NCBI GenBank assembly: GCA_024508855.1
Contig: JANINJ010000006.1
Coordinates: 38,301-102,300, forward strand
Source of the DNA: Xanthobacteraceae bacterium
GTDB lineage: Bacteria > Pseudomonadota > Alphaproteobacteria > Rhizobiales > Xanthobacteraceae
Reading direction: 5' to 3'
Length of the DNA stretch: 64,000 bases
A model generated the notes under the pieces. It saw only the letters and a list, made by a program, of their open reading frames with translations. It was not told the origin of the DNA and did no database searches. This document shows, piece by piece, positions 1 to 15,255 of the stretch. The position numbers were made by a program, and so were the translations under genes. Numbering within the stretch: the stretch's first letter is position 1; each line of letters begins with the position of its first letter.

Positions 1-240
1 CCACGCGGCGCGCGGATCGAGCCCAAGGCCGCCATAGAGGCTTGGCTGAGTGATGCGAAACAGCCCTTCCGCCACCAGCCGCTCCACCACTTCCGGCGTC
101 AGGCTACGCCGCTGCTCGATTTCGACCGCCTTGCTGCGCAGCCATTCCTGCATATGGGCCGCATTGGTGACGACGGCAGCAGCGCCGTTGCTGCCCTCTC
201 TCGATCGGTCATCTGCTTGCGCAAGTGCCATTGACGCCAT
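1..240 (-). CDS. Acyl-CoA-dehydrogenase-fold flavin-dependent monooxygenase, oxygenase component (5' end only; gene runs off the window)
   Basis: Not in the ORF track because it is open at the window edge. Minus-strand reading from ATG 240..238 (alt ATG 231..229) gives 80 codons with no stop: MASMALAQADDRSREGSNGAAAVVTNAAHMQEWLRSKAVEIEQRRSLTPEVVERLVAEGLFRITQPSLYGGLGLDPRAAW. The R.L.PEVV..L.E.GLFR...P..YGG pattern is typical of N-termini of HsaA/HpaH-C2/DszC-type two-component monooxygenases (recognised from memory). A flavin reductase gene lies 0.8 kb away. Confidence 0.5.
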   Translation of the reverse strand, partial: MASMALAQADDRSREGSNGAAAVVTNAAHMQEWLRSKAVEIEQRRSLTPEVVERLVAEGLFRITQPSLYGGLGLDPRAAW

Positions 241-368
241 CGGCTCCATCCGAAAAACTCATGCTGATGACGCTAGCCCAGCCGATTTTCGCCGGGCTGT
301 ATCGCCCTATACGAGATGGCACATCTTTTCCGTTCAATCTGGGATTCATGACCCGGACCACGCATGAC

Positions 369-1031
369 ATGACGAAAAAGAAACTCGGCACATGGCGCAT
401 CGACCGTCAGCTCGTCGAACAGATCAGCCGACATGCCGCCTATGGCCGCCGCCGCAAGTTCAAGAAGAACGCCGTGCTCTATGAGCAGGGTGAAATCTCG
501 ACGCGGTTCTATTTCGTGCTCAAGGGACTGGTACAGATCTCGATCTTCCGTGCGGATGGCTCCGAGGTGGTGCTCGAACTAATGGGGCCGGAAACCATCT
601 GCGGCGAAGGCTCCGCGTTCGACGGCCTGCCGCGTTTTTCCAGCGCCGCTGCTGTGGAAGACACCGAGGCGATCGAGTTCGATACTTCGAAGATGACCGA
701 GATTTTCCGCTCCCATCCGGAGTTCGCGACGTCGCTGCTGCGTGTGACCAGCCTGAAGCAGCGTGTGGTCGCAATCCGCCTCAAACACCTCGCATCACGC
801 GAGCCTCAGGACCGCATCATGGAACTGCTGACACGCCTCGAGGAAATGTTTGCGATCGACCACCCGAAGGGGCGACTGCTGGTCACTCACGTTACGCACG
901 AACAGATCGCAACCATGACCGGCACCTCACGCGTGACCGTCACGCGCACGTTGCATCGACTGCGCGAGCAGAATCGCATCGACATCGTCGACGGACATAT
1001 CCTGCTCAAGCGCCGAGCTACTGCTGGCTGA
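369..1031 (+). CDS. Crp/Fnr-family transcriptional regulator (paralogue 1)
   Basis: ORF 225..1031 trimmed to ATG 369 (MTKKKLGTW...). It has a cNMP-binding-like beta-barrel (RFYFVLKGLVQISIFRADGSEVVLELMGPETICGEGSAFDG) and a C-terminal wHTH (THEQIATMTGTSRVTVTRTLHRLREQ). There is no N-terminal Cys cluster. Confidence 0.85.
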   Translation: MTKKKLGTWRIDRQLVEQISRHAAYGRRRKFKKNAVLYEQGEISTRFYFVLKGLVQISIFRADGSEVVLELMGPETICGEGSAFDGLPRFSSAAAVEDTEAIEFDTSKMTEIFRSHPEFATSLLRVTSLKQRVVAIRLKHLASREPQDRIMELLTRLEEMFAIDHPKGRLLVTHVTHEQIATMTGTSRVTVTRTLHRLREQNRIDIVDGHILLKRRATAG

Positions 1032-1040
1032 AGCGATGAC

Positions 1041-1562
1041 CTATCCGCACGCGCCGAGCGGATGCGGCCGCATCACGCTGTAACGCCCCTCGTGATAGAG
1101 CAGTGGATGTTTTGCCGTTGCAGGGCCGACAATCTCCCGCACGGCACCAACAATGATGGTGTGGTCACCACCCGGATAGGTGCTGGCGACATCGCAGAAC
1201 ATTGCCGCGTTGCAGTCCGGAATCGTAAACCAGTCCAAGTACCGATGGCACGCACTCGCATTCCAACCTTCCGCCCGCCCCGCGAAGTAACCGGAGATAT
1301 GTTGTTGTGCATCCGAAAGAATGTTGACAGAAAACGAACCACGCGTGATCACCGCCTGACCGGTGCGGCTTTCGTTGCGGGCGCAGAACAGCAGAAGTGG
1401 CGGATCGAGGCTGAGCGATGTCAGCGAGTTGACCGTGAGGCCGATCGGTCCTTCTTCGCCAGCTGTCAGCACCACCGCGACACCGGTGGCGAACCGCCCC
1501 ATCAGGCGGCGAAACGTCAAGGCAGCAGCATCGATCATCCGCAATCGTCCCGGTCGTTGCAT
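1041..1562 (-). CDS. Flavin reductase (HpaC/RutF-like, Flavin_Reduct domain)
   Basis: ORF 1041..1724 trimmed to ATG 1562 (alt ATG 1538) so that it clears the upstream Crp gene. Core: FRRLMGRFATGVAVVLT...GLTVNSLTSLSLDPPLLLFC...GDHTIIVGAVREI. Confidence 0.8.
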   Translation of the reverse strand: MQRPGRLRMIDAAALTFRRLMGRFATGVAVVLTAGEEGPIGLTVNSLTSLSLDPPLLLFCARNESRTGQAVITRGSFSVNILSDAQQHISGYFAGRAEGWNASACHRYLDWFTIPDCNAAMFCDVASTYPGGDHTIIVGAVREIVGPATAKHPLLYHEGRYSVMRPHPLGACG

Positions 1563-1635
1563 CGACCGGGAGCATGGCGGATTGTTTCGAAGAATGCCGT
1601 ATCGCGGTACACAGGCTCGCGTATTGCGGGAAATA

Positions 1636-2334
1636 TCAGGCCTGCACGCGTGCACCGTCGCCAAGACCGTAACACGGCGACCGTACCAGCTCGTAATTGC
1701 CGCGCTTGCACCGCACAGCGCCATCGCGCCTCAACTTCTGCATCGCCCGCGTCACGGTGATACGCGAGGCCCCGATCAGATTGGCGATCTGCTGATGAGT
1801 CAGAACGATAGTCGGCGATTCGGGCGTCGTGATCTGCGACAGCAGTTCGGTGATCCGGCCCTCGGGCGAAGCTTGAGTCACCTGCGCGAGACGCGTCGCC
1901 AGCATACGCTGCTTGAGTGCAATGGTCTGCACCACGAGCGGCGCGAGTCCGGCGTGGCCGGACATCAGCTTGCAGAAATCAGTGGCCGGGATCACGAGAA
2001 CCTCGCAATCCTCCAGCGCATTGGCACTGGAAAATCGTGGCAGACCATCGAAGGCGGCACCTTCGCCGCACAGCGCACCTGCACCCACAATGTCGATCAG
2101 CAACTCTTGTCCGTCGGCACGCAGCATCGTGATGCCGATGCGACCCGATATCACAACGAACACCTGATCGCTCACTTCATCCTGCCGATAAAGCGCGCAT
2201 CCCTTCGGATATCTACGGCGCATCAAGGCCGGTGCGAGACCTAGAAGATACGCCAGCATCGCTTGCGGAACGCGCAGCGTTTCGCTCACTCCCGGACGCA
2301 TGAGTTTGGATACCGTGTCCTGCATCCGGGACAT
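1636..2334 (-). CDS. Crp/Fnr-family transcriptional regulator (paralogue 2)
   Basis: 232-aa ORF with the same architecture as 369..1031. It shares the block CGEG(A/S)AFDGLPRFSSA and has the HTH THQQIANLIGASRITVTRAMQKLRRD. No FNR-type Cys cluster. Confidence 0.85.
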   Translation of the reverse strand: MSRMQDTVSKLMRPGVSETLRVPQAMLAYLLGLAPALMRRRYPKGCALYRQDEVSDQVFVVISGRIGITMLRADGQELLIDIVGAGALCGEGAAFDGLPRFSSANALEDCEVLVIPATDFCKLMSGHAGLAPLVVQTIALKQRMLATRLAQVTQASPEGRITELLSQITTPESPTIVLTHQQIANLIGASRITVTRAMQKLRRDGAVRCKRGNYELVRSPCYGLGDGARVQA

Positions 2335-2404
2335 TCTGTCACTCCTCGAACAAAGGGTCGGCGGATCAATACCAGGCGGCCGACAATACGCAGTCGCCGT
2401 TATA

Positions 2405-3331
2405 TCATCCCGCCGTGGTGCGCAGCCACAGCGTCATGGCCTCATGCTCGGCCTGGGCGGCTTCGCATAGCGCCCTTGCGCGCACAAAGCCGTGAATGAG
2501 CCCGAGACCGGGGCGAAACGTCACAGGAACGCCGGCCGATTTCAGATGCTCCGCATAGGCATGACCGTCGTCACGCAGCGGATCATGTTCGGCAACCACA
2601 ATGAAGGCAGGCGGCAGATTGGAGAGATTGTCGCATCGCATCGGCACCGCAAGCGGGTTCTGACGCTGCCCCGCATCTGGGCAATACTGGTTCCAGAACC
2701 AGACCATCTCGACCGCCTTCAGGTAAGGCGCTTCGGCTTCGCTGCGATAGGATCCGCGTTCGAAATCGGTGTCCACACACGGATAAAGCAGCAATTGCCC
2801 TCGCAGCCGCAAGGGACTGTCGCGGAAGGCAAGGGTCATCGCGGCAGCGAGATTCCCGCCGGCGGAGTCGCCGCCAACAAAGATAGCGGTCGGGTCCACG
2901 CCCATTGCGCCGGCATTGGCGAAGGTCCAGGCGACAACGGCACGACAATCTTCCATCGGCCCGGGAAACGGATGCTCTGGCGCGCGAGCATAATCCACGC
3001 TGATCACCACGCAGGGCGTATCCGCAGCAATTGCCGCGGTGATGGAATCGTGACTATCGATACTGCCGATCACCCACCCGCCGCCGTGCATGTAGATCAG
3101 CGCGGGCAGCGGCTTGGGCGCGTGCGGACGATAGATGCGGACACGCACCGGCCGCGGACCATCGATCACCCGGGTCTCGACCTCGAGTCCATCGGGATAA
3201 GGCGTGCGCGCTGCGGCCGACAGCCGCTCGACGCGATCGCGCCAGGCATCGATCGGTAACGACAGCACCGGCTCCGGCCACGCCTCCTCCAGCCGCGCGA
3301 TGAAGGGAGCAAGCTGCGGATCAATAGCCAT
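2405..3331 (-). CDS. Alpha/beta hydrolase, Abhydrolase_3 (HSL/arylformamidase-like esterase or deformylase)
   Basis: ORF 2405..3529 trimmed to ATG 3331 (MAIDPQLAPF...), 32 nt after the upstream stop. It has the oxyanion motif HGGGW (IYMHGGGWVIGS), the nucleophile elbow GDSAGG, and a C-terminal DPLRDD...H. Confidence 0.8.
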   Translation of the reverse strand: MAIDPQLAPFIARLEEAWPEPVLSLPIDAWRDRVERLSAAARTPYPDGLEVETRVIDGPRPVRVRIYRPHAPKPLPALIYMHGGGWVIGSIDSHDSITAAIAADTPCVVISVDYARAPEHPFPGPMEDCRAVVAWTFANAGAMGVDPTAIFVGGDSAGGNLAAAMTLAFRDSPLRLRGQLLLYPCVDTDFERGSYRSEAEAPYLKAVEMVWFWNQYCPDAGQRQNPLAVPMRCDNLSNLPPAFIVVAEHDPLRDDGHAYAEHLKSAGVPVTFRPGLGLIHGFVRARALCEAAQAEHEAMTLWLRTTAG

Positions 3332-3363
3332 GGGTGACGTATCCTGCGTGATAACCGATTGAA

Positions 3364-5034
3364 CTAGATACTGCCGTGAACGAATTTTCCGCCGACCATG
3401 GTGGCAAGGCAGGACAGCGTTTCCAGCTCCTCGCCCGGCATGGTGAGTGGACAGCCGCTGAGCACCGTGAGGTCGGCAAAATAACCCGGGGCGATCCGCC
3501 CCTTGACGTTTTCCTCGAACGAAAACCACGCGCCGTTCTGCGTCATCGCGCGCAGCGCAAGTTCGGCGGTGGTCCGTCCGCCCGCGCCCAGCACTTCGCC
3601 GGTGGTGCGCTCACGGCGGGTGCGCATCGCCCGCATAGTCGCCAACGGATTGAAAGGGCTGTTATCGGTGCCGCACGCCACCGGCACGCCGAGCGCGTCG
3701 AGCTGCGCCGTCGGCGACACCAACTCGCGATCAGCTTCGGACAATGGGAAAAAGCGGGTGCCGACTTTCCAGACGTGATAATCCGGAATCAGGGTAACGC
3801 CGATGCCAAGCGCCTTGAGGCGCGCAAGATCGGATGCCGATGCATGACTCATGTGCTCCACCACCCAGCGGCGGCGTGAAATGTCGTGAACCGCATGCAC
3901 GCGTTCGAAGATCGGCAGCAATTCGCACAGCTTGTCGACGGCGATGGTGTGAATACGTAAATCATGCGCGGCCGTGCGCATGCACAGCTTTTCGAAGTCA
4001 TCCGGCTCATTGGCGTGCTTGATGTAACATGACCAGCCGAGATCGGCCGGATCGATCCGCGCGGCGCGGGCCGCCGTCGGCTCGCCGCCATAACCGACAA
4101 AAATGCCGCCGATGCGGAGCGTGGCGTCGCCAATTCCAGCCCCGCGCGCATGCGACAGCCAATCGCGCATCATCAGTTCGGCTTCCTCGCACGTCGTCCA
4201 GGTCGGACTGACGACGAGATGCATGCGCATGGTCAGCTCGTTCGCCTGCCATAGATCGCGATAAGCATTGATGACTTCGGGCGCGCAGCCGTGACCTTCA
4301 TAAACGCTGGTGGTTCCGACAGCATGATAGGCGCGCACCGAACGCAGGATGCCGTCCCGGCGGTCCTTTGGTGAAAAACGTGGCACGGCCGGCAATAACG
4401 CGATCTGGGCGGAATCCGGATAGTTATGCTCGACGATCACGCCGGTCAGTTCGCCCGCGGCGTCGCGCTCCAGTTCGACGCCTTCGACCGGCGACGTGGA
4501 ATTCCGGTCCAACCCGTTCGCTTTGAGCGCGAGCGAATTGAGCGCGGTGCAACACGGCAACAGGCTCCAGTAGCCGGACGGCGGCAGGATGCAGACGGGA
4601 TGATCCGGCGCCACACGGTCAAGCTCGGCGCGCGTCGGCATCCGTCCTTCCTTCAGGACCGAAGGGCCGCCGAAATAGAACGGTGCGTCGCCCACCGGCA
4701 TGGTGACGATCCACTCGCCGCGTGGCGTTTCGCGGGCGAGTCCTGCAATCCGCGCCAGCACATCGGCAATGCTGCGGACATGGCCAAGCGAGGGGAAACG
4801 GTCGCGTAGCCCCTCCGTATCCAGATGCGCGTGAGCATCATTGAAACCGGGAATGATCGTGCCGTCGGTTTCGGTGATGCGCGTAGCCGTTCCTTTCAGA
4901 TCCAGAATCGCACGGCGATCTCCGACGGCAACGATGTGGCCGTCCTGAACTGCAACGGCTTCGGCAATGCGCCCGCTCTCATCGAGAGTAATAACCCGTC
5001 CGGTAAGGATATGGTCGATGTCACGCCGGCTCAT
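3364..5034 (-). CDS. Amidohydro_3 (YtcJ/NfdA-like) metal-dependent amidohydrolase
   Basis: ORF 3364..5061 trimmed to ATG 5034 (MSRRDIDHILTG...). It has the metal motif PGFNDAHAHLD after an N-terminal beta-sandwich. The ~556-aa size is typical of this family. The start overlaps the LivM-like stop by 14 nt. Confidence 0.8.
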   Translation of the reverse strand: MSRRDIDHILTGRVITLDESGRIAEAVAVQDGHIVAVGDRRAILDLKGTATRITETDGTIIPGFNDAHAHLDTEGLRDRFPSLGHVRSIADVLARIAGLARETPRGEWIVTMPVGDAPFYFGGPSVLKEGRMPTRAELDRVAPDHPVCILPPSGYWSLLPCCTALNSLALKANGLDRNSTSPVEGVELERDAAGELTGVIVEHNYPDSAQIALLPAVPRFSPKDRRDGILRSVRAYHAVGTTSVYEGHGCAPEVINAYRDLWQANELTMRMHLVVSPTWTTCEEAELMMRDWLSHARGAGIGDATLRIGGIFVGYGGEPTAARAARIDPADLGWSCYIKHANEPDDFEKLCMRTAAHDLRIHTIAVDKLCELLPIFERVHAVHDISRRRWVVEHMSHASASDLARLKALGIGVTLIPDYHVWKVGTRFFPLSEADRELVSPTAQLDALGVPVACGTDNSPFNPLATMRAMRTRRERTTGEVLGAGGRTTAELALRAMTQNGAWFSFEENVKGRIAPGYFADLTVLSGCPLTMPGEELETLSCLATMVGGKFVHGSI

Positions 5035-6061
5035 TTTGTGCACTCCCCACAGGCGCCACAACCGATCGTTTCGCGCTGGCTCCCTCTACCCAACCCAGTC
5101 GCGCACGGATAAACAGCCGTTCGCTCAGTCCGCCGATGCCCGCGGGTATCGCCACCAGCGTCAGGATCAGCGCGCAACCGAACACGAGGCCGCCGAGCGA
5201 GACGTCGATATCGCTAGCCCAGACCGGTACGAACTGGATGAACATGGCACCGACGATGGCGCCGTTGAGCGACGTGATCCCGCCCACCACAGCTCCGACG
5301 AACAGGCTGAGGCTCATCATCACGTTGAACGTATCCGGCGACACGAAGCCGACGATCATGGCATAGAGTGAACCCGCAACCCCCGCATAGAGGCTGCTCA
5401 TCGCGAAGGTCGCGGTCGTCAACGTTGCGCGATCGACGCCCATCACGGCACCGACGAGTTGATTGTCGCGTGCTGCCACCAGCGCCCGCCGCAGCGGTCC
5501 CGACAGAATGCGGCGGGCAATCACGTAGAGAACAGCAGCAACGGCAAGCGATACGAAATAGATCCACTGCGAATCGTCGATCGGAAGAAATGCAGGCGCT
5601 TCGGGATTTCCGACGTTGAGCCCCTGGACGCCGCCGGTAAATCCTTCAAATCGCTTGAGCACCGGCGGCACCGTGATCGAAAGCACCAGCGTTCCCAATG
5701 CCAGATAGAGTCCCTGCAACCGCAATGCCGGAAATCCGAGACACCAGCCGGCGACCCAGCTCAGCGCGGCCGAGACCGGAATGGTCGCATAGGGATTCCA
5801 GCCATATCGCACCACCAGAATCGCGGTGGTGTAAGAGCCGAGCGCAACGAATGCTGCATGGCCGAGCGTGATGGCGCCGCCAAAACCCGTCACCAGATTG
5901 ATGCCGACGATGGCAATTGCGAATACCAGCACCGTCGCGAACTGGCTGACCAGATAGTTCGGAATGACGAACGGAATGACGTAGAGAAACACAACGGCGA
6001 GCGCGGCACCCACGATCGCACGGACCGCGATCGGCAATCTCGGTTTGATGACAACGTTCAT
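5021..6061 (-). CDS. HAAT-family ABC transporter permease (LivM-like)
   Basis: Only the C-terminal 346 codons of ORF 5021..6775 are credible. ATG 6061 (MNVVIKPRLPIAVRAIV...) overlaps the LivH-like stop as ATGA. The protein is multi-TM with the block GFGGAITLGHAAFVALGSYT. Confidence 0.85.
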   Translation of the reverse strand: MNVVIKPRLPIAVRAIVGAALAVVFLYVIPFVIPNYLVSQFATVLVFAIAIVGINLVTGFGGAITLGHAAFVALGSYTTAILVVRYGWNPYATIPVSAALSWVAGWCLGFPALRLQGLYLALGTLVLSITVPPVLKRFEGFTGGVQGLNVGNPEAPAFLPIDDSQWIYFVSLAVAAVLYVIARRILSGPLRRALVAARDNQLVGAVMGVDRATLTTATFAMSSLYAGVAGSLYAMIVGFVSPDTFNVMMSLSLFVGAVVGGITSLNGAIVGAMFIQFVPVWASDIDVSLGGLVFGCALILTLVAIPAGIGGLSERLFIRARLGWVEGASAKRSVVAPVGSAQNEPA

Positions 6062-6939
6062 AACCGCACGACCTTCTTCCGACCGAACAAACCGTCCGGC
6101 TTGATCAGCAGCGTCCCGAAAATCAGGACCAGCGCCACGATGATCTTGAGATCGGGACCGATCCAGGGGACGTAGGTACCGACCAGATTCTCGACCACGC
6201 CCACCAGAAGACCGCCGACAACCGCGCCGACGATACTGTCGAATCCGCCAAGCGTCGCCGCGGCGAACGCGTAGATGATCACGCCGAACATCATCGTTGG
6301 ATTCAGAAATACGCGCGGCGCGACCAGAATGCCCGACAGCGCCCCGAGCGCAGCCGCGATGCCCCAGCCGATCAAAAGCATCACCGGCACCGATACGCCC
6401 ACCAGAACAGCTGAATCCGGTGTCGAGGCCGCACCGCGCATCGCCAGTCCCACCTTGGTGGTCTCGAACAACAGATAGAGCAGCAACAAGACAAGACCGA
6501 CCACGACGATGATTCCGGCGGTTTCCGCCGAAACGCTGAACGAGCCGAACTGAAGATGAGCTTTGGGAAACAGGCTCGGAAGCGGCTTGATGGTGTAAGT
6601 CCAGATAAATCCGGCCAGGCTGTTGAGCGCTAGATACAATCCGATCAGAACGCTGACGACCGTCAACAGGCTGGCATGCGACAGCGGCTTCACGATGGAA
6701 GCGTAAAGCAATGTGCCCGCGATGAACGAAACAACGATACTGACGAGCACCGCCGGAATCAGCGGCAGCCCCCATGCCATCAACTGCCAGACGAGATAGG
6801 CCGAAAGCATCGCCATTTCGCCCTGAGCGAAGTTTACGATACCGGTCGAGCGATAACTGAAAACGAGGGCGAGCGCGAGCGACGCGTAGATCGCGCCGTC
6901 GGCAAGACCGTCGACAATCTGGCTGGCGAAGAGCGTCAT
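6058..6939 (-). CDS. HAAT-family ABC transporter permease (LivH-like)
   Basis: 293 aa, multi-TM (MTLFASQIVDGLADGAIYASLALALVFSYRSTGIVNFAQGE...). It has 4-nt overlaps at both ends. Confidence 0.9.
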   Translation of the reverse strand: MTLFASQIVDGLADGAIYASLALALVFSYRSTGIVNFAQGEMAMLSAYLVWQLMAWGLPLIPAVLVSIVVSFIAGTLLYASIVKPLSHASLLTVVSVLIGLYLALNSLAGFIWTYTIKPLPSLFPKAHLQFGSFSVSAETAGIIVVVGLVLLLLYLLFETTKVGLAMRGAASTPDSAVLVGVSVPVMLLIGWGIAAALGALSGILVAPRVFLNPTMMFGVIIYAFAAATLGGFDSIVGAVVGGLLVGVVENLVGTYVPWIGPDLKIIVALVLIFGTLLIKPDGLFGRKKVVRL

Positions 6940-7646
6940 TCGTACCCCAAATAGATGCGTCGGACTTCGTCGTTGCCTGCGAGGCTCTGCGCGGAATCGC
7001 GTAGCACGATCTGCCCGCTCTCCAGAACGACTCCGGAATCTGCCACTTCGAGTGCGAGATTTGCGCTCTGTTCGACGATCAGCATCGTCATGCCGGTCTC
7101 TTCGCGGATCGCGGCAAGCGTTCTGAACAGCCCCTGCGTGATGATGGGTGCGAGCCCGAGCGAAGGCTCGTCCAGCAACAGCAATCGGGGCCGCAGCATC
7201 AGGGCGCGTGTGATCGCCAGCATCTGCTGCTCACCGCCGGACAGGCTGCCGGCCTGCTGGGACAAGCGTTCGCGCAGCCGCGGGAAGAAGGTCAGCCAAC
7301 GTTCCCGATCCTGCCGCGCCTCCGCCACGGTGCGCAGATAAGCGCCGAGGCGGATGTTCTCGTCGACCGTGAGATCGGCGAAGGTGCCCCGCCCCTGTGG
7401 GACATGGGCAATGCCGGCAGCGACGATCTTTCGCGCGGAAAGCCGATCGATCGGCATGCCGCCGAACATGATCGTTCCCTGCCGGGCGATAGTGCCGGAG
7501 ATCGCACGCAGCAGCGTCGTCTTGCCTGCGCCATTGGCGCCCAGCACGACCTGGATCTGCCGCTCCTCGACATCGAGTTCGATATCGTGCAGCACGCTGC
7601 GCGCATCGTAGCCGGCCCGTATCTGCCTGAGGCTGAGAAGGCTCAT
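6936..7646 (-). CDS. HAAT-family ABC transporter ATP-binding protein (LivF-like)
   Basis: 236 aa with Walker A GANGAGKTTLL, signature LSGGEQQML and Walker B LLLLDEPS. Confidence 0.9.
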   Translation of the reverse strand: MSLLSLRQIRAGYDARSVLHDIELDVEERQIQVVLGANGAGKTTLLRAISGTIARQGTIMFGGMPIDRLSARKIVAAGIAHVPQGRGTFADLTVDENIRLGAYLRTVAEARQDRERWLTFFPRLRERLSQQAGSLSGGEQQMLAITRALMLRPRLLLLDEPSLGLAPIITQGLFRTLAAIREETGMTMLIVEQSANLALEVADSGVVLESGQIVLRDSAQSLAGNDEVRRIYLGYE

Positions 7647-8407
7647 GCCGCGGCCCCCAGATAAGCCGCGGCGACGTTTGGATCGGCCTTGACTTCAGAC
7701 GGCGTGCCATCGGCGATCTTGATGCCGTTCTCGAGTACCACGACGCGATCGGAAATACGCATCAGCATCCGCATGTGATGCTCGACCAGCAGGACCGTGA
7801 GACCATGCCGCTGCCGCACCCGAAGGATGACGTCGGACAATTCGTCGACTTCACCGTGCGACAGACCATTGGCCGGTTCGTCCAGCATCAGCAACCGCGG
7901 ATGCGAAATCAGAGCCCGCGCAAGCTCGATCCGCTTCAAGGTACCGAACGGCAAACCACCGGCCAGATGATCGGCAACCGCGGACAACCCGAGATCATGA
8001 AGGATGTCGCGCGCCTCATTCTCAATCGCAGCCGGATCGATTAACGCGCCTTTTGCGAAAATAGCGTTGACGAAACCCGGCCGTAGCCGATGATGGGCGC
8101 CCAGCAACACATTCTCCGTCACCGACATCGCGCCGAACAGGCCGACATTCTGCAGCGTCCGTGCAATGCCGAGCCCAATGATCCGGTTCGCCGGCAGCGC
8201 CGTGATATCCTGGCTGGCAAAATGGATCGAACCCTGGCTGACCTCGTAGACGCGGGAGATCGCGTTGAACAGGGTGGTTTTCCCGGCTCCGTTCGGGCCG
8301 ATCAATCCACAGATCGTGCCGTCTTCGACATCGAACGAGACGTCCTGCAGCGCGCGAACGCCACCGAACTGGATGCCGACATTGCGGACCTGAAGCAAGG
8401 CGGTCAT
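7643..8407 (-). CDS. HAAT-family ABC transporter ATP-binding protein (LivG-like)
   Basis: 254 aa with Walker [12 protein letters not shown] and Walker B LLMLDEPANGL. It has 4-nt overlaps with both neighbours. Confidence 0.9.
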   Translation of the reverse strand: MTALLQVRNVGIQFGGVRALQDVSFDVEDGTICGLIGPNGAGKTTLFNAISRVYEVSQGSIHFASQDITALPANRIIGLGIARTLQNVGLFGAMSVTENVLLGAHHRLRPGFVNAIFAKGALIDPAAIENEARDILHDLGLSAVADHLAGGLPFGTLKRIELARALISHPRLLMLDEPANGLSHGEVDELSDVILRVRQRHGLTVLLVEHHMRMLMRISDRVVVLENGIKIADGTPSEVKADPNVAAAYLGAAA

Positions 8408-9354
8408 GCGCCGCCCTCAAAGATCGCTTTCGGCATGCGCGCATGAATGCCGTTCACGCCATTGACGAGTTGGGTCACCAACAGATCGGCCTGCAGGGAA
8501 CACAACGCATAGGCGTCGGATCGCGTCATATCCTTGGTCTTCACCATCAGTTCAATCATGTCGAGCACCGCCAGCCGCGCGGCTTCGCGGAGATCTTCGT
8601 CCAGTCCCATGGTGATGAAGTACTCGCGGGTCTCGGCCCACGGGCGCACGATCGGCTCGCCCTTGACAACCGTCAGCCGAAGCTGCGCTGCAGTCATCGC
8701 GGTCTCCAGCGCGGTCTGCACCACCTCGCCGGAGCCCTGCGCCGCATGCGCATCACCTGCGTAAAAGCCCGCGCCTTCAACAAAAACCGGAAGATACAGA
8801 ACGCTACCCGCGACGAGATCGGCGCAATCGATATTGCCACCGAAATTGCCCGGGATGGCCGAACTGCGCGGCTCTTCATCTGGCGGCGGCAGCACACCCA
8901 TGATGCCGAGGAACGGGCGCAGTGGAATCCGGATATCCTTACCAAACCTGGTGGTCATGGTCCGCCGGTCGAGCTCGAAATGGCGCAACTCGGCATCCTG
9001 AAAGATATCATTCAGCAGACCGCGACTGCGTCCTCCAGGGAAGATCAGGTTGATGCCATGATCGGCAACCTCGAGGCTTTGAATTTCGACTTTCAAAACA
9101 TCGCCCGGTCGAGCCGTCTCGATGGCAATCGGTCCGGTGAGACTGTGCGGGCCGCGACCTTCGGTGCGAAACTTCTCACGCAGCGCCATCGCCCGCTCGA
9201 GATCGAGCGATGGCCCACCCGCATTGTCCCACATCGCCCAGGTGTCGAGAATCACTGTGTCGCCGGAGGCCACCGTGTGGACGGTCTTGGCCCCCGGATC
9301 GATGATCCCGCTCTGAACGGTCGATGCACAGGCTTTGAGAACGTGAGTCGCCAT
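8404..9354 (-). CDS. Acetamidase/formamidase-family (FmdA_AmdA) amidohydrolase
   Basis: ORF 8404..9693 trimmed to ATG 9354 (MATHVLKACASTV...), which overlaps the DUF1989 stop (ATGA). About 316 aa. Family-like blocks: GPHSLTGPIAIETARPGDVLKVEI, GGNIDCADLVAGSVLYLPV, AGDAHAAQGSGEV. The call is from motif memory. Confidence 0.75.
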   Translation of the reverse strand: MATHVLKACASTVQSGIIDPGAKTVHTVASGDTVILDTWAMWDNAGGPSLDLERAMALREKFRTEGRGPHSLTGPIAIETARPGDVLKVEIQSLEVADHGINLIFPGGRSRGLLNDIFQDAELRHFELDRRTMTTRFGKDIRIPLRPFLGIMGVLPPPDEEPRSSAIPGNFGGNIDCADLVAGSVLYLPVFVEGAGFYAGDAHAAQGSGEVVQTALETAMTAAQLRLTVVKGEPIVRPWAETREYFITMGLDEDLREAARLAVLDMIELMVKTKDMTRSDAYALCSLQADLLVTQLVNGVNGIHARMPKAIFEGGA

Positions 9355-10043
9355 CAATTCGCCTGCGCTGCCGCCGCGTCGGCAAATACCTGCAATCGCA
9401 TCGGCGTGCAGCGGCCACCGTTGATCTGGCTGATATGATCTTCCGGGCAATTGGAGATGGCGACCAGGCAATCGGTCTCCGCACGCAGTTCGACATAGTC
9501 GCCCGGCTTGGAGACGGGTGCTTCGGCCACCCAGGAGTGGCTGGCGCAATCGTGGTGGTAGTTCATGAAGAAATCGATGGTATCCGGAATATCTTCGGGG
9601 CGAATCCCGTACGGCGCCACGATCCCGCTGATGATCTCGTGGCAACCGTCGATGCCGGACAAGCCGAAGCTTTCGTAGAAGCGCCGGTTGCACATGCGCT
9701 GATTGACCTTGTGAACGCCTTTTGGTTCCGGCGTTTCCTTGATGATCGTCATCAACGGGGTGTAGATGGTGGACATCAGCACGTCGCCTTCGGTGAGAAA
9801 GTCCTTGGACATGGCCACCGTCGGTTCGGGACGCCTCCCGCGCTTTGCGCTGTATTGCATCGCGTAACGCGTAGTGGAGTAGGATAGCGACAGTCGATCG
9901 CGATAGTTGTTGGCATTGAAGATCGCCACATCGACGACCTGCTGCCCTTCCAGATCCGTGATTCTGAGAACTTCACCGGTACGGACGATCAACGCTCGTC
10001 CGGTTTTCGGCGGCAGAACTTCATTCAACAATTCAGTGGCCAT
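9354..10043 (-). CDS. DUF1989 ('urea carboxylase-associated'/carboxyguanidine-deiminase-like) family protein
   Basis: ORF 9354..10049. The first ATG is at 10043 (MATELLNEVLPPKTG...); the track start at 10049 is TTG. Blocks LRITDLEGQQVVDVAIF and GDYVELRAETDCLVAISNCPED resemble DUF1989 proteins. The call is from memory. Confidence 0.65.
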   Translation of the reverse strand: MATELLNEVLPPKTGRALIVRTGEVLRITDLEGQQVVDVAIFNANNYRDRLSLSYSTTRYAMQYSAKRGRRPEPTVAMSKDFLTEGDVLMSTIYTPLMTIIKETPEPKGVHKVNQRMCNRRFYESFGLSGIDGCHEIISGIVAPYGIRPEDIPDTIDFFMNYHHDCASHSWVAEAPVSKPGDYVELRAETDCLVAISNCPEDHISQINGGRCTPMRLQVFADAAAAQAN

Positions 10044-10058
10044 GATCAACCGCCCATC

Positions 10059-11330
10059 TCACTTGGTCTGATGAGGCGTCTTGCCTTCGTACTTCGTGAT
10101 GATGTCACCGACCGGCTCCCAGTTTCCCTTGGCGTAGCGGACGACCTGCATCGACTCGACGTAGAATGGATCGGTCTTGCCGTCGACGCAGACCTTGACG
10201 CCAGGCACCACGCCGAGCACCGGCACGCCGCAAAGATGGCGGGCCGACTCCATGATCGCCGCGCGCGTCGGCGCCTTCGTTTTCTCCAGCACCGCGACCA
10301 TGGTCTGTGCCTGACCGAATCCGTACATCGTCATCGGATCGTCCAGATTGAGCCCGGTTGAACTGAACTTGGTGCCGATCTCGCGATAAGCCTTCATGTC
10401 TTTGGTCGCGGCATAATCGGACGTCGTCGGGTCCATCAGGCTGACCACCGAATAGACGCCCTCCGAGGCCTCGGCACCTGCCGGCTCCATCACGGTTTTC
10501 TTCGACGCACTGATGTTGGTGACGATCACCATCGGCCGCCACGACGTATCCTGAACCTTGCGAAGGGTCTGCGCGGTGAACTTGGGCACCGCGAATACCA
10601 GGAGAACATCGGCGTTCGTTGCTGCAAGGTTCGATACCTGCGAATCCACCGTCGGCGAGGTCACCTCGTAGGACTGCGCGTCGGCAACCGTAATGCCGCT
10701 GCCTTCGGCCGCATGCTTGAAGGCATTCAGCAATTCTTTGCCGAAGTCATCGTTCTGATAGAGGATCGCGACTTTTGCGTTGGGTTTCTTCGATTTCACG
10801 AACTCGGCGTAGATACTGCCTTCGGTCGTGTAAGAAGGCTGCCAGCCGACAGTCCACGGATATTTCTCCATGTCGGTGCTGAACGCGGACAAGCCGCTTC
10901 CAACCGAAAGCTGAGGGATGCCGCGCTTGTTGAGATAGTCGCGGATCGCAAGGCCGGTCGCACTGCCGAGCGGGCCGATGACCAACGCGACCTGGTCGCG
11001 TTCGACCAGGCGCCGCGCCTGCTCCACGGTACGCGGCGGCGAGTAGCCGTCGTCATAATAGACATAGGATATCTTGCGACGCTTGCCGTCGCCCATCATC
11101 ACACCGCCGTCGCGATCGTTGATGTATTTGAAATAAGCGTCCTGCATTGCGCAGATTGTGACAAAGGACGCGATCGGGCCCGTGCTCGGGCAGATACCGC
11201 CAATTTTCACTTCGGTGTCGGTGATGCCGGGCGTTGCTTTCTCGGCCGCCACAGCACCTGACGTCGCCATTGCAAAAACGGCGCCCGCGACGAGAGCCGA
11301 ATTGATCCAATTGAAGCACGTATTGCGCAT
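10059..11330 (-). CDS. Periplasmic substrate-binding protein, Peripla_BP_6 (LivK-like)
   Basis: ORF 10059..11423 trimmed to ATG 11330. MRNTCFNWINSALVAGAVFAMATSGAVAAEKA reads as a Sec signal peptide. It is followed by a type I binding-protein fold (CPSTGPIASFV..., VALVIGPLGSATG). Confidence 0.85.
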   Translation of the reverse strand: MRNTCFNWINSALVAGAVFAMATSGAVAAEKATPGITDTEVKIGGICPSTGPIASFVTICAMQDAYFKYINDRDGGVMMGDGKRRKISYVYYDDGYSPPRTVEQARRLVERDQVALVIGPLGSATGLAIRDYLNKRGIPQLSVGSGLSAFSTDMEKYPWTVGWQPSYTTEGSIYAEFVKSKKPNAKVAILYQNDDFGKELLNAFKHAAEGSGITVADAQSYEVTSPTVDSQVSNLAATNADVLLVFAVPKFTAQTLRKVQDTSWRPMVIVTNISASKKTVMEPAGAEASEGVYSVVSLMDPTTSDYAATKDMKAYREIGTKFSSTGLNLDDPMTMYGFGQAQTMVAVLEKTKAPTRAAIMESARHLCGVPVLGVVPGVKVCVDGKTDPFYVESMQVVRYAKGNWEPVGDIITKYEGKTPHQTK

Positions 11331-11473
11331 CTCAAACCTTCCCTTCCCCCGGCGGCCAAACCGCCTCATTCCCATTCCAAATCGATGACCATCGGCCGCA
11401 CGAAGCCGCTCTCGGACGAGCACCTGCTCGCCGGCTAATGGCGCTATCCTGAATTTGCTTACGTCAGCCGCAG

Positions 11474-11782
11474 CTAGGCGACCGGCCCTTTGCCTTGAAG
11501 TGATTCAACGAGCTTGTTCACGGCGACAGTCGCCCCCTTGCCGGCTTCGTTGCCGAAGATAAGCCGAGCGAACTGCCCGCCGAGATATGGATGAAGTCCG
11601 ATGTCGTAGAGCGCGAGAAAGTTGCGTGTTTCAATCGCGTGACGCTCGTCTTTCCGCAACAGATAGCGATCGAGCACTGTGGCTTCGTTCGCAGCGAATT
11701 CCTCGCGCAGTTCCGGCGACCACTTCAAATCCTGGATCAGATCGTGCGTTGCCAGCGACGGGTTGAACTTCTCAAGACCCAT
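11474..11782 (-). CDS. LigA-family small subunit of a class III extradiol ring-cleavage dioxygenase
   Basis: 102 aa. It has the LigA-like helical repeat FAANEATVLDRYLLRKDERHAIETRNFLALYDIGLHPYL and starts 14 nt after the LigB-like stop. Confidence 0.7.
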   Translation of the reverse strand: MGLEKFNPSLATHDLIQDLKWSPELREEFAANEATVLDRYLLRKDERHAIETRNFLALYDIGLHPYLGGQFARLIFGNEAGKGATVAVNKLVESLQGKGPVA

Positions 11783-11796
11783 AATCGTCTCCCGTA

Positions 11797-12675
11797 TCAG
11801 GCCGCGGCGCGCGACTTCGGCATGTTAGGGCTCATGTCCCACAGCACGCCACCGACGCCGCACTTGAAGTCCTTGTGAACCGTGTAACCAAAGCTCTTTC
11901 CAGGCTTCGAACCGATGGCGCCGAGCACGACGACCCATGAAAGCAGTTCTGCCGTCCCGCCGGAGCCAGCCGCTTCCATCTTCTCCAGTGTCAGTTCGTT
12001 CAGCAGTTTCTCGTGATCGCCGGACGCGACCAGATCGAGGAACCAGCGATCGAACTCTTCGTCGATGAAGTAATAGCGTGCACCACCGGGTTCATGGCTC
12101 AGGCCGCCAGAACCGAGCAACGCAACCCGCATATCGGCGGGAAGATCGTTGCGGATGAAGTCACCGAGCGCCTTGCCGACCTCGTAGCAACGGCGCTGAT
12201 CCGGGATCGGCGGAACAGTGCAGTTCTGCAGCACAGGCACCATTGGAATGCCGCTACCCGCGACATTGGTCAGCAACACGGGTACCGAGATATTGTCGTC
12301 GAATTTCAGATTTTCATTTTGCGCGAACATCCGGATGCCGCGCCGTGTCATGCCGTCAAACAGAGCCGCGGCAACTTCGGGCGATCCCTTCACGGTGTAG
12401 TCCTCGCAGCCGATCCACGGCTTGAACCATTCGTAAGGACCGCGGTGCTCTGCGGCCATTCCAATCAGAAAGTCGGGATAGGCGCGCACCTTGCTGTTTG
12501 CCAGATGATCGTTCGCGAACACGATCAATACATCCGCCTTTGCCGACGCCATCGCATCCGCGAGACTGCGATAGGTGCTGGTCACCACATCCTTCACATC
12601 GGCCGGCGCGGCTTCCAGCAGTCCGATCAAACCCGGCGCATGCGGCGCACCGGCGGCGTAAACGATCTCGGCCAT
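11797..12675 (-). CDS. LigB-family catalytic subunit of a class III extradiol ring-cleavage dioxygenase
   Basis: ORF 11797..12774 trimmed to ATG 12675 (MAEIVYAAGAPHAPGL...). The contexts of the LigB Fe(II) ligands and catalytic His are present: APHAP, FANDH, LGSGGLSHEPGG. Confidence 0.8.
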   Translation of the reverse strand: MAEIVYAAGAPHAPGLIGLLEAAPADVKDVVTSTYRSLADAMASAKADVLIVFANDHLANSKVRAYPDFLIGMAAEHRGPYEWFKPWIGCEDYTVKGSPEVAAALFDGMTRRGIRMFAQNENLKFDDNISVPVLLTNVAGSGIPMVPVLQNCTVPPIPDQRRCYEVGKALGDFIRNDLPADMRVALLGSGGLSHEPGGARYYFIDEEFDRWFLDLVASGDHEKLLNELTLEKMEAAGSGGTAELLSWVVVLGAIGSKPGKSFGYTVHKDFKCGVGGVLWDMSPNMPKSRAAA

Positions 12676-12724
12676 GGCGTTCTCCTTATCGATCCAAAGT
12701 TGTTCTATAATTCCAAACATGTCA

Positions 12725-12740
12725 AGATTTTCGAAAATCT
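12725..12740. promoter_or_regulatory. Perfect 16-bp palindrome, candidate operator in the divergent ligB-like/GntR promoter region
   Basis: AGATTTTCGAAAATCT is its own reverse complement. It sits in the visibly AT-rich 134-bp spacer between ATG 12675 (minus) and the start at 12810 (plus). Confidence 0.35.
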
Positions 12741-12809
12741 CTTTCTGCTTGGATTTTGGACAATGCTCGCTCATATTGGATGCAGATTCGCGACAAATAG
12801 GCGCAGCGT

Positions 12810-13565
12810 ATGAGGAATATGTCCAAGCAACCCGCGCACCGGTGGGGTCCCAGCCTGCATTCCTCGCGGGACGAAACGCCGAAAACGCTCGCAGGCCGGG
12901 TCGCGCAACAACTACGCCGCGATATCATCCGCCATCAGCTTACCCCGGGCGAACGGCTGCAATTCGAGAAACTGAGCAAGCGGTACGAAGTCGGTACCAG
13001 TCCATTGCGCGAGGCCCTGTTCCAGGTCGCAGCACAGGGACTGGTGATTGCCGAAGATCATAAAGGCTTCGTCGTTGCGCCGATTCATTTCGACGAGATG
13101 CTGGACGTTTCCAACCTGCGTGCAAATCTGGAAGCCTACGCAATCCGCGGCGCGATCCGCGACGGCCACGAGGATTGGGAAGTCGATCTGCTCTCAGCTT
13201 TTCATCGTCTCAAGCTTGCCGGCATCGCAGTGTCGGCCGATCAGGAGGACGAAGGCCGCCGCACCGAGTGGGAAGATCGCCATCGCGAATTCCACTACGC
13301 GCTGTGCAAGGGATGCGGCTCGCCCTGGCTGCTGCATTTCTTCGACGAACTGTACGACCACATGGAGCGCTACCGGCGCTACTTCTGGAAATATGCCGAG
13401 CGGGCTGTTGCCGCCGACGGCGAGCACGAGGCCATCATGAAGGCGGCGCTCGATCGCGATGAAGAGCGCGCAGTCAACCTTCTCCAGGCCCACTTCCAGA
13501 AGCAGGCACGCCTCACCATGAATTTGCGGAAGAAGGTCGAGCGCGCCACCGCTGCGGCCAGCTAA
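12810..13565 (+). CDS. GntR-family transcriptional regulator with FCD-type C-terminal domain
   Basis: 251 aa (alt ATG 12819). It has an N-terminal wHTH (LQFEKLSKRYEVGTSPLREALFQVAAQGLV) and an all-helical FadR/FCD-like C-domain. It is divergent from the catabolic operon. Confidence 0.85.
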   Translation: MRNMSKQPAHRWGPSLHSSRDETPKTLAGRVAQQLRRDIIRHQLTPGERLQFEKLSKRYEVGTSPLREALFQVAAQGLVIAEDHKGFVVAPIHFDEMLDVSNLRANLEAYAIRGAIRDGHEDWEVDLLSAFHRLKLAGIAVSADQEDEGRRTEWEDRHREFHYALCKGCGSPWLLHFFDELYDHMERYRRYFWKYAERAVAADGEHEAIMKAALDRDEERAVNLLQAHFQKQARLTMNLRKKVERATAAAS

Positions 13566-13617
13566 AACTTTCGCTCCCGATGGGATTGGAAGCGCGATTC
13601 TGCCACGGACACATCGA

Positions 13618-15117: not shown

Positions 15118-15255
15118 CGGGACCTCAATCGAGTTATCGCCTCGATCGTGTTCCAGCTTTTCCGTATCCGCAAGAGAGTTGTCCCCTGTTCGAAGCGGAC
15201 AACGGCGGCGGCGTAACAATTCTTCGCTCGCGATACCCATCGGCCACATTCGCAC

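Follow-up and report, generated by a model that had tools for sequence, protein, structure and literature searches.

An uncharacterised LigBA-type dioxygenase operon tied to C-N hydrolases in a Xanthobacteraceae bacterium, and its possible separation from an adjacent homoprotocatechuate-type unit

The window analysed here is a 64,000-nucleotide (nt) stretch of contig JANINJ010000006.1 (positions 38,301 to 102,300 of the forward strand; assembly GCA_024508855.1) from a Xanthobacteraceae bacterium. Its left end (nt 1–13565) carries genes for a two-subunit LigB-LigA extradiol dioxygenase (LigBA), a Liv-type ATP-binding cassette (ABC) importer, several hydrolases, a two-component flavin monooxygenase and three regulators, and the question raised by this locus is whether these genes serve a single catabolic pathway and what kind of compound the dioxygenase opens. 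An earlier note, made from the DNA alone, read them as a single, integrated locus: the flavin monooxygenase would act first, on an N-heteroaromatic compound or an aminophenol, LigBA would cleave the resulting diol, and a deformylase and an amidase would follow in the manner of NicX-NicD-NicF. The reading preferred here, with a probability of about 0.5, is that the region holds two adjacent and separable catabolic units: unit A (nt 12810 to 2405, from the divergent GntR regulator and LigB to Abhydrolase_3), an 11-gene operon under GntR/FCD control that would act on an aromatic carboxylic acid, and unit B (nt 2334 to 1 and beyond the window edge), of a Crp/Fnr-regulated homoprotocatechuate type. 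The earlier interpretation is thus partly supported. It was right that there is an uncharacterised LigBA operon tied to C-N hydrolases, and wrong on the single locus and on the monooxygenase step.

One catabolic locus or two

Four of the genes that had been counted with LigBA were reassigned by the gene-neighbourhood search. The leftmost (nt 1–240, minus strand) comprises the first 80 codons of a flavin-dependent oxygenase of the acyl-CoA dehydrogenase (ACAD) fold (Acyl-CoA_dh_N, 22.8 bits; 404 aa at full length), which heads the unit B operon. Divergent from it, across a control region at nt 241–368, lies a Crp/Fnr regulator gene (Crp2, nt 369–1031, plus strand), followed by a 165-aa flavin reductase (nt 1041–1538, minus strand; Flavin_Reduct, 117.5 bits) and a further Crp/Fnr regulator (Crp1, nt 1636–2334, minus strand), which belongs to unit B by synteny. 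Both regulators show cNMP_binding and HTH_Crp_2 domains. The exact flavin reductase of the window was found again on a 35-kb contig (L056) that reaches past the left edge of the window, where it is followed by the divergent Crp2 gene, the 404-aa oxygenase (Acyl-CoA_dh_N/Acyl-CoA_dh_2), a RidA gene, a two-domain Glyoxalase-type extradiol dioxygenase, a second Peripla_BP_6/Liv importer, a second RidA and a second Amidohydro_3 gene. The same order, with an Aldedh gene added at the end, is present on a 447-kb contig (L062) and in the chromosome of Bradyrhizobium sp. NP1 (L063), and Crp2 is divergent from the oxygenase gene in all three (unit B spans nt 11308–20498 in L056, 10001–21212 in L062 and 10001–21221 in L063).

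The two enzymes that give unit B its character lie outside the window and were tested on L062, whose oxygenase and dioxygenase are 89% and 95% identical to the L056 proteins. The dioxygenase passes the HpaD equivalog TIGR02295 (373.7 against a cut-off of 321.4) and the aldehyde dehydrogenase passes the HpaE equivalog TIGR02299 (746.5 against 638.35). The oxygenase stays below the NCBIfam cut-offs for HsaA (188.4 against 450) and for the oxygenase component (C2) of p-hydroxyphenylacetate 3-hydroxylase (129.8 against 650), and the flavin reductase also stays below all NCBIfam cut-offs (best FerA, 113.8 against 260), which leaves both with family-level membership only. The known system nearest to unit B is the hpa/hpc pathway that uses a two-component ACAD-fold 4-hydroxyphenylacetate 3-hydroxylase (Acinetobacter C1/C2 type). 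Unit B shares with it a flavin reductase and an ACAD-fold oxygenase, and HpaD and HpaE equivalogs in a near relative. It differs in the oxygenase scores just given and in carrying two RidA genes, an Amidohydro_3 gene, its own Liv-type importer and two flanking Crp/Fnr regulators.

The units occur independently of each other. Bradyrhizobium sp. NP1 has the Crp1-reductase-Crp2-oxygenase block without any unit A gene in the 10 kb upstream, and the unit A core stands without unit B genes, within the sequence covered, in Bradyrhizobium U87765, Cucumibacter, Candidimonas, Rhodoferax, an Ilumatobacteraceae metagenome-assembled genome (MAG; a short contig) and plasmid p48A of Corynebacterium glutamicum. 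Crp1 precedes the flavin reductase in NP1, and in a Bradyrhizobium 1H092 locus (L019) it adjoins an HpaD-type gene. The upstream elements also differ: unit A has a palindrome (described below), while in unit B a box of the form CGTAT-N6-AYACAG stands upstream of both the oxygenase (nt 297–313, CGTATAGGGCGATACAG) and the flavin reductase (nt 1598–1614, CGTATCGCGGTACACAG). L062 retains both boxes and NP1 the one before the oxygenase. The number of matches to this box in the window is not above chance, and its weight rests on placement and conservation; the Fnr/Crp consensus TTGAT-N4-ATCAA has no site in the control regions. Because these four genes belong to an operon with its own HpaD and HpaE, occur independently of LigBA and have different upstream boxes, Crp1, the flavin reductase, Crp2 and the oxygenase are assigned to unit B. 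Since unit B stands alone in NP1, the monooxygenase most likely feeds HpaD and not LigBA, and its most likely role is the hydroxylation of a 4-hydroxyphenylacetate-like phenol.

A single integrated locus has some points in its favour: the genes adjoin one another on a single strand, both in the window and in relatives, HpaD-type and RidA genes lie beside LigBA in L019 and in a Reyranella locus (L023), and the hydrolase set suits the removal of N-formyl or amide groups. Yet the oxygenase heads an operon of its own that includes an HpaD-equivalog dioxygenase and HpaE, each unit is found without the other, L019 and L023 lack both oxygenase and reductase, and the box before the reductase is shared with the oxygenase operon and not with LigBA. 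A first step for LigBA catalysed by the two-component monooxygenase, as originally proposed, is therefore improbable.

Unit B would then be an ordinary hpa-type pathway with unusual extras, in which the flavin reductase and ACAD-fold oxygenase may hydroxylate the phenol, the unit's own HpaD-type dioxygenase may cleave the product and HpaE may oxidise it. The extras (a pair of RidA genes, an Amidohydro_3 gene and the unit's own Liv-type importer, placed between or after the HpaD- and HpaE-equivalog genes) are uncommon in a homoprotocatechuate pathway, and hint at an amino- or amide-substituted hydroxyphenylacetate-like substrate.

Gene content, conservation and operator of unit A

Families were called by Pfam scans at gathering scores on the translations of open reading frames, and gene junctions were read directly from the sequence. 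Every family named in the earlier note was recovered at gathering scores, and the motifs APHAP, FANDH, LSHEPGG, HGGGW and GDSAGG are all present in the translations. Unit A opens with a GntR regulator carrying an FCD domain (nt 12810–13565, plus strand; GntR 55.3 bits, FCD 76.9 bits), divergent from LigB across a control region at nt 12676–12809. The other genes are on the minus strand: the catalytic LigB-type subunit of a class III extradiol dioxygenase (nt 11797–12675, 292 aa; PF02900, 121.9 bits), the LigA-type small subunit (nt 11474–11782, 102 aa; PF07746, 33.6 bits against a cut-off of 25.3), the periplasmic binding protein of a Liv-type (HAAT) ABC importer (nt 10059–11369; Peripla_BP_6, 172.5 bits) with an N-terminal signal-like segment, a stand-alone DUF1989 protein (nt 9354–10043, 229 aa; PF09347, 118.3 bits), a short-form amidase of the FmdA/AmdA family (nt 8404–9354, 316 aa; PF03069, 128.4 bits), LivG-like (nt 7643–8407; ABC_tran 100 bits, BCA_ABC_TP_C 37 bits) and LivF-like (nt 6936–7646; ABC_tran, 101.4 bits) ATPases, LivH-like (nt 6058–6939; BPD_transp_2, 113.1 bits) and LivM-like (nt 5021–6061; BPD_transp_2, 100.4 bits) permeases, an Amidohydro_3 metal hydrolase (nt 3364–5034, 556 aa; PF07969, 195.2 bits; HxH motif in GFNDAHAHLD) and, as the last gene of the unit, an alpha/beta hydrolase of the hormone-sensitive-lipase (HSL) type with HGGGW and GDSAGG (nt 2405–3331, 308 aa; Abhydrolase_3, 242 bits).

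The same-strand run from nt 12675 to 1041, which continues through Crp1 to the flavin reductase, holds 13 genes and not twelve, and the DUF1989 and FmdA genes sit between the binding-protein gene and LivGFHM, where the importer had been described as one uninterrupted block. The overlap coordinates proved correct. DUF1989 and FmdA share 1 nt at 9354 (TGATG), ATGA overlaps join FmdA to LivG (nt 8404–8407), LivG to LivF (nt 7643–7646), LivF to LivH (nt 6936–6939) and LivH to LivM (nt 6058–6061), and LivM overlaps Amidohydro_3 by 14 nt (nt 5021–5034). These six overlaps join seven genes, from DUF1989 to Amidohydro_3, and identical overlaps are kept in L062, where the proteins of the region are about 82–96% identical to those of the window. 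At the other junctions of the run, the gaps are 14 (LigB/LigA), 104, 15, 32, 70 and 97 nt.

The neighbourhood survey covered 43 genome loci, with genes in related loci called by a codon log-odds caller trained on the window genes. An identical LigB protein was seen only on metagenome contigs, and the closest genome loci (95–97%) are Xanthobacteraceae/Hyphomicrobiales MAGs. In each of the 42 loci whose LigB match is full-length, a LigA homologue comes after LigB (the contig of L052 stops within LigB). FmdA is linked to LigBA in 21 of the 43 loci, and on C. glutamicum p48A as well. A GntR homologue, divergent from LigB and 57–94% identical, occurs in 19 loci, all of them FmdA-linked, and the HSL-type hydrolase is present in the FmdA-linked group wherever the sequence extends far enough (for example, in Bradyrhizobium U87765, Cucumibacter, Candidimonas and Alcaligenaceae). 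A core of GntR, LigB, LigA, short FmdA-type amidase, HSL-type hydrolase and a transporter thus recurs in Alpha- and Betaproteobacteria, and the LigB-LigA-FmdA trio is also found in Actinobacteria. DUF1989 and Amidohydro_3 are confined to Xanthobacteraceae/Bradyrhizobium-type loci. [quoted passage not shown] Some Bradyrhizobium-type loci (L019, L024, L026 and L050) have additional genes inserted in unit A or placed beside it: a binding protein of the NMT1/THI5 type, an ABC ATPase fused to a permease, and one more Amidohydro_3 gene.

In a neighbour-joining tree of LigB the deepest branches are FmdA-linked (C. glutamicum, with 49.5% identity, Ilumatobacteraceae, Candidimonas, Rhodoferax and Cucumibacter) and the FmdA-less clades are nested inside, which argues that FmdA is the ancestral partner of LigBA. 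In some FmdA-less loci, LigA is followed by a KynB-type cyclase (PF04199, the kynurenine formamidase/isatin hydrolase family; L037) or by Amidohydro_2 (four loci), and in Bosea an isochorismatase-type hydrolase and then Amidohydro_2 occur where FmdA is missing; the remaining FmdA-less loci have unrelated neighbours. The persistent linkage of LigBA to C-N hydrolases, as read from the window by the first analysis, is therefore borne out in other genomes.

Two plasmids carry more distant arrangements. On C. glutamicum p48A (L054, NZ_CP014329, nt 5111–11179), LigB-LigA-FmdA come immediately downstream of genes for hydantoinase/oxoprolinase A and B and for an IclR regulator, with dmpFG-type aldolase and dehydrogenase genes, an alpha-hydroxy-acid oxidase and an HpcH-type aldolase nearby; this is the sole context from an actinobacterial isolate that was seen. 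On a plasmid of Bosea sp. Tri-49 (L055, NZ_CP017947, nt 2140–11538), a 39%-identical relative has the order LigA-LigB ahead of the isochorismatase-family hydrolase and Amidohydro_2, and the genes for an FCD regulator, a Liv-type importer and a creatininase-family protein all diverge from it.

The control region contains a perfect palindrome, ATTTTCGAAAAT (nt 12727–12738), adjacent to CTTGACA on the LigB strand, and a degenerate second copy at nt 12752–12764. The exact palindrome occurs once in the 64-kb window, and the block upstream of LigB is conserved in 16 aligned sequences (the window and 15 loci), including Candidimonas and Cucumibacter. The GntR/FCD protein is most likely the one that binds it, and would control unit A through this site.

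The conservation of this core bears on whether unit A is a mosaic, in which a cassette for taking up and hydrolysing short-chain amides or urea, made up of the binding protein, DUF1989, FmdA and LivGFHM, was inserted by chance between an unrelated LigBA and the downstream hydrolases. FmdA genes are known beside Liv/Urt-type amide-urea importers, as with the Methylophilus fmd genes, FmdA-like genes are common on plasmids (1070 records), and the nearest NCBIfam models of the DUF1989 protein are urea-amidolyase-associated proteins (UAAPs). Such an origin is nonetheless very improbable: Bradyrhizobium U87765, Cucumibacter and C. glutamicum keep FmdA next to LigBA with neither a Liv-type importer nor DUF1989, the GntR operator is conserved together with the core genes, the formamidase, UAAP and UrtA models score far under their cut-offs, and urea carboxylase and allophanate hydrolase genes are absent.

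The dioxygenase and its partner hydrolases

LigBA is predicted to be a class III extradiol dioxygenase of the two-subunit LigAB form, to which fold, ligands and the separate LigA all point. In an alignment to LigB, residues His12, His57 and Glu243 and the catalytic His194 of the window protein match the ligands and catalytic histidine of that enzyme (His12, His61, Glu242 and His195). Across 26 homologues (64–88% identity), His12, His57 and Glu243 never vary and the conservation of His194 is 90% or higher, so the metal site assumed in the earlier note is intact, and a separate LigA-like partner in B-then-A order is likewise present. An AlphaFold2 model (predicted local distance difference test score 86.9) returned DesB (TMq 0.81) and LigB (0.79) as best Foldseek matches, followed by an A. 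baumannii 3,4-dihydroxyphenylacetate dioxygenase, MhpB and 2-aminophenol dioxygenases, and a sequence search of solved structures gave only distant matches to LigB, DesB and MhpB.

The protein is not readily placed within its family. It reaches no NCBIfam subfamily or equivalog cut-off (protocatechuate 4,5-dioxygenase PRK13372, 91 against 837; gallate dioxygenase, 81 against 412), the small subunit falls short of LigA PRK13378 (23 against 161), and identity to named LigB-family enzymes on plasmids is uniformly about 28–31%. Compared with LigAB, DesB and GalA, the window enzyme shares the fold (TMq 0.79–0.82), the 2-His-1-Glu ligands, the catalytic histidine and a LigA-type partner, separate as in LigAB. 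It differs from LigAB and DesB in sequence (about 23% identity, with equivalogs far under cut-off), in its B-then-A order and in its partners, which are amidase and esterase families instead of the LigC, LigI, LigJ and LigK of LigAB pathways. Some homologues in the window LigB family (400–425 aa) carry both LigA and LigB domains. A further difference is the loop aligned to LigB His127, an invariant F125-D126-D127-N128 with no histidine in any of the 26 homologues, although the alignment there is not secure; a PydA-type protein has G-N-N at this position. The F-D-D-N loop may mark a different way of handling the substrate.

The FmdA-like protein does not reach the formamidase equivalog NF045496 (71.4 against 500) and has 316 aa, against about 407 aa for the long form. 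Its closest solved relatives are uncharacterised short acetamidase/formamidase proteins. Relatives with 44–47% identity lie in Skermanella beside allantoinase, ring-opening amidohydrolase, amidase and DUF3830 genes, and in Azospirillum beside amidohydrolase-family, dihydroorotase-family and DUF3830 genes. For the Amidohydro_3 protein there is no solved relative at E≤1e-5 and no NCBIfam cut-off was passed. The models nearest to the alpha/beta hydrolase are LipP1 (314.8 against 350) and the amide-cleaving chloramphenicol hydrolase (248 against 500), neither of which it reaches. An HSL-type aryl-acylamidase, Amq, acts after dioxygenolytic cleavage of an N-heteroaromatic ring in quinaldine catabolism.

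The DUF1989 protein is a probable zinc enzyme. Structures from this family bind zinc through three cysteines (PMC12560246), and three cysteines of the window protein align with cysteines of the trimethylamine N-oxide (TMAO) demethylase 9q59 and presumably have the same role. Characterised family members are a carboxyguanidine deiminase and TMAO demethylase (PMC11271267, PMC12560246). The window protein scores below UAAP1 and UAAP2 (TIGR03424, 88.8 against 284.7; TIGR03425, 53.3 against 206) and Tdm (87.7 against 1100), and among the window proteins around it there is no urea carboxylase or allophanate hydrolase and no fused GcvT domain. A scan with Rfam for riboswitches and other RNA elements, such as a guanidine riboswitch before DUF1989, gave no match above threshold. 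A PinT small RNA match inside the binding-protein gene (nt 10570–10623, minus strand; 24.5 bits against a gathering score of 60, E 0.22) is almost certainly due to chance.

Candidate substrates and related systems

The clearest indication of the substrate comes from transporters in related loci. Next to the unit A core in Bradyrhizobium U87765, a TRAP binding protein matches PDB entry 7NQG over its full length (569.7 bits, 74% identity), and those beside the core in Alcaligenaceae CGII-47 and Cucumibacter are 54% and 50% identical to it. Entry 7NQG can be equated with TarP (RPA1782), because the termini of the chain (QDKTVNW and KYDAGL) are encoded by the rpa1782 primers given in PMC3610893. 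TarP binds coumarate, caffeate, ferulate, cinnamate and 4-hydroxyphenylpyruvate with nanomolar dissociation constants, and TRAP binding proteins hold the carboxylate through a conserved arginine (PMC3610893). With TarP-like proteins next to the core in three lineages, the suggested substrate is an aromatic carboxylic acid roughly as large as a hydroxycinnamate, and a neutral hydroxypyridine is less likely. Hydroxypyridines or aminophenols, the classes named at first, are possible in principle, but the choice is now constrained towards aromatic carboxylic acids. In Bradyrhizobium sp. U87765 (L007/L025, nt 13270–14301), the TarP orthologue follows the alpha/beta hydrolase gene at a distance of 74 nt and lacks adjoining TarQ and TarM genes; the membrane components are present in the Cucumibacter and Alcaligenaceae loci. 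The window itself has no TarP-like TRAP protein and uses the Liv-type system. The best solved relatives of its binding protein include aromatic-acid binders of the CouP type, at only about 47 bits. A CouP-like ligand site was considered and rejected, as CouP Arg197 and Ser222 both align with Val, and the window binding protein accordingly gives no information on the ligand.

On these grounds, the unit A substrate is best sought among aromatic acids that carry or yield an amide or formamide and/or an ester. The Liv-type system would take up the acid, the Fe(II)-dependent LigBA would cleave an ortho-dihydroxylated (or o-aminophenolic) ring, and the short FmdA-type amidase and HSL-type hydrolase would cut amide or formamide and ester or aryl-amide bonds, acting on the ring-fission product or, earlier, on the uncleaved substrate. 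DUF1989 and Amidohydro_3 would be lineage-specific additions that probably remove further nitrogen or acyl groups. Either hydrolysis alone would yield central metabolites, as expected for a heterocycle, or the products would enter pathways encoded elsewhere, possibly in the neighbouring hpa unit. In its most novel form, advanced tentatively and at well below even odds, the proposal is of an undescribed route in which LigBA opens an amino-, amido- or N-heterocyclic aromatic acid (for example, one derived from a plant phenolamide, or of a pyridone type), the short FmdA-type amidase processes the product, and the DUF1989 zinc protein and Amidohydro_3 join in this lineage. Such a route would give a physiological role to short FmdA-like proteins and a new role to stand-alone DUF1989 outside guanidine and TMAO metabolism.

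A nearby alternative, which follows the pyd and nic systems in its logic, is that unit A degrades a hydroxylated N-heteroaromatic ring, for instance a pyridinediol or a pyridone that may carry a carboxyl group. The ring would open beside its nitrogen, and hydrolases alone would turn the resulting N-formyl or amide product into formate, ammonia and small acids. In its logic, the pyd cluster for 3-hydroxy-4-pyridone (3,4-dihydroxypyridine) of Rhizobium sp. TAL1145 is the nearest analogue of unit A: there too, a GntR gene is divergent from a PF02900 dioxygenase, hydrolases and a binding-protein-dependent importer follow, and there is no dehydrogenase or aldolase. PydA, the dioxygenase for 3-hydroxy-4-pyridone, is a PF02900 protein (PMC7356986) with 29% full-length identity to the window LigB (121 bits), and like the pyd cluster unit A consists of a dioxygenase and hydrolases only. 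Four C-N-type hydrolase families are present in unit A, FmdA-like relatives sit in clusters for the hydrolysis of N-heterocycles, and RidA or aminotransferase genes lie beside LigBA in Reyranella. Several differences make this alternative rather unlikely. The PydA signature regions DDHFENH and EWICGM (PMC3637104) are absent, the window LigB having FANDHLANS and DFKCGV, and PydA is no closer in sequence than the other types of the LigB family (about 28–31% identity). The TarP-like proteins and the FCD regulator suggest an aromatic carboxylate of phenylpropanoid size and not a neutral pyridinediol, and Reyranella and other loci pair the dioxygenase with lignin-type or pcaHG genes.

PydA is a single 333-aa subunit without a LigA partner, with an insertion of about 45 residues. 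The pyd hydrolase PydB belongs to Abhydrolase_1/6 and that of unit A to Abhydrolase_3, and the PydCDE importer is a sugar-type ABC system whereas that of unit A is of the Liv type. The pyd cluster has fumarylacetoacetate hydrolase (FAH) and RidA genes that are absent from unit A, and lacks FmdA, DUF1989 and Amidohydro_3. Orthology of the window LigB to PydA was rejected on the low identity, the absent motifs and the different companion genes. A complete pyd-type cluster was found under generic annotation on the conjugative plasmid pCB3060_4 of Rhizobium sp. CB3060, a Leucaena symbiont (L053, nt 7211–15956), with two GntR genes, a dioxygenase with the PydA motifs, an alpha/beta hydrolase, an ABC importer, FAH and RidA. 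Plasmid p1 of Rhizobium rosettiformans (L066, nt 4552–12801) carries a LigB-family dioxygenase about 30% identical to the window LigB together with a small 'subunit of meta cleavage enzyme'; its neighbours are an FAD monooxygenase, two alpha/beta hydrolases and a three-subunit molybdenum hydroxylase, and the whole looks like a cluster for an N-heterocycle of the quinoline type.

The NicX-NicD-NicF system resembles unit A in functional logic only, as a dioxygenase followed by an alpha/beta-fold deformylase and an amidase. NicF belongs to the isochorismatase family, as does the hydrolase of the Bosea relative. NicX is not known to belong to the LigB family and has a para-diol as its substrate, and none of NicX, NicD and NicF is known to be homologous to a unit A protein of the window.

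The substrate could also be a plant phenolic that contains no nitrogen, for instance a catechol acid with methoxyl or ester groups, with the alpha/beta hydrolase removing an ester created by ring cleavage and the FmdA-like protein having a side role or no amidase function. The precedent is found in syringate catabolism, where the LigAB-type dioxygenases MgaAB and DesZ are followed by the CHMOD methylesterases MgaC, DesC and DesD, alpha/beta-fold hydrolases that remove the acyl substituent of the methyl-ester ring-fission product created by cleavage (PMC12314914). The likeness to unit A is one of logic; MgaC, DesC and DesD are of the MenH/Abhydrolase_1 type, and their clusters, unlike unit A, have no amidase family. 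DesB and LigB as the closest folds, the TarP-like binding proteins, the pcaHG-pcaB-like genes (recognised from translations) that adjoin some loci, and a Reyranella locus with an 88%-identical LigB beside CoA ligase, enoyl-CoA hydratase, Meth_synt_2, glutathione S-transferase (GST) and Amidohydro_2 genes would all suit this explanation. What it leaves unexplained is the FmdA-type amidase as the most persistent and ancestral partner of LigBA, the KynB-type cyclase or isochorismatase-type hydrolase beside LigBA in some FmdA-less loci, and the addition of DUF1989 and Amidohydro_3; together with gallate and protocatechuate 4,5-dioxygenase scores far under their cut-offs, this gives it little probability.

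Several observations weigh against the preferred division into a unit A for an aromatic carboxylic acid and a separate unit B. The 88%-identical LigB of Reyranella has no FmdA within 10 kb, and its neighbourhood, which also includes a short-chain dehydrogenase/reductase gene, fits a nitrogen-free, lignin-type catechol. The binding protein of the window is an orthologue of neither TarP nor CouP, and Val replaces the carboxylate-binding Arg197 of CouP. Genes for a dehydrogenase, hydratase, aldolase or C-C hydrolase are missing from unit A, and for a substrate with a benzene ring the lower pathway would have to come from other loci. Since no unit A enzyme reaches a curated NCBIfam equivalog cut-off, all of its activities are assigned at family level only. 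Finally, units A and B, or parts of them, adjoin in three arrangements (that of the window, L019 and L023, the last two with HpaD-type and RidA genes beside GntR-LigBA), which possibly reflects some functional link or else the mere clustering of aromatic pathways.

As in the earlier note, no characterised pathway with this enzyme set was found, whether by literature or by NCBIfam equivalogs. The literature search found no paper that assigns the LigBA-FmdA-Abhydrolase_3 set, although a characterisation in a subscription journal cannot be excluded. Orphan aromatic-catabolism operons of this general type are common in soil Alphaproteobacteria, and nothing in unit A is mechanistically unexpected; it appears as an uncharacterised but conserved and portable core with a swappable importer and a recognisable operator. 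The candidate cluster has been narrowed to 11 genes from 16, with the monooxygenase excluded, and the candidate substrates to aromatic carboxylic acids about as large as a hydroxycinnamate, along with amides or esters derived from them. Once found, the substrate would assign functions to a LigB subfamily and to the very common short FmdA-like proteins, as well as to stand-alone DUF1989 and Amidohydro_3 in this lineage, and it might account for the turnover of nitrogen-bearing plant aromatic acids in soil.

Scans for sigma-70 promoters and terminators gave nothing above chance in the window. Beside the GntR gene lies an efflux operon of the resistance-nodulation-division type (nt 13618–22903, minus strand), with an OEP outer-membrane factor, two pumps of the AcrB family (1092 and 1037 aa) and a membrane-fusion protein. 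The genes on this outer side of GntR differ in the closest MAGs, so the neighbours of unit A are not conserved there. Further to the right (nt 23756–58402) are housekeeping genes for ATP synthase alpha/beta, PriA, sucAB/sucCD (including 2-oxoglutarate dehydrogenase E1 and succinyl-CoA synthetase beta), mdh, an FtsX-type permease and aconitase. With core housekeeping genes making up the remainder of the window, the catabolic units are placed on the chromosome.

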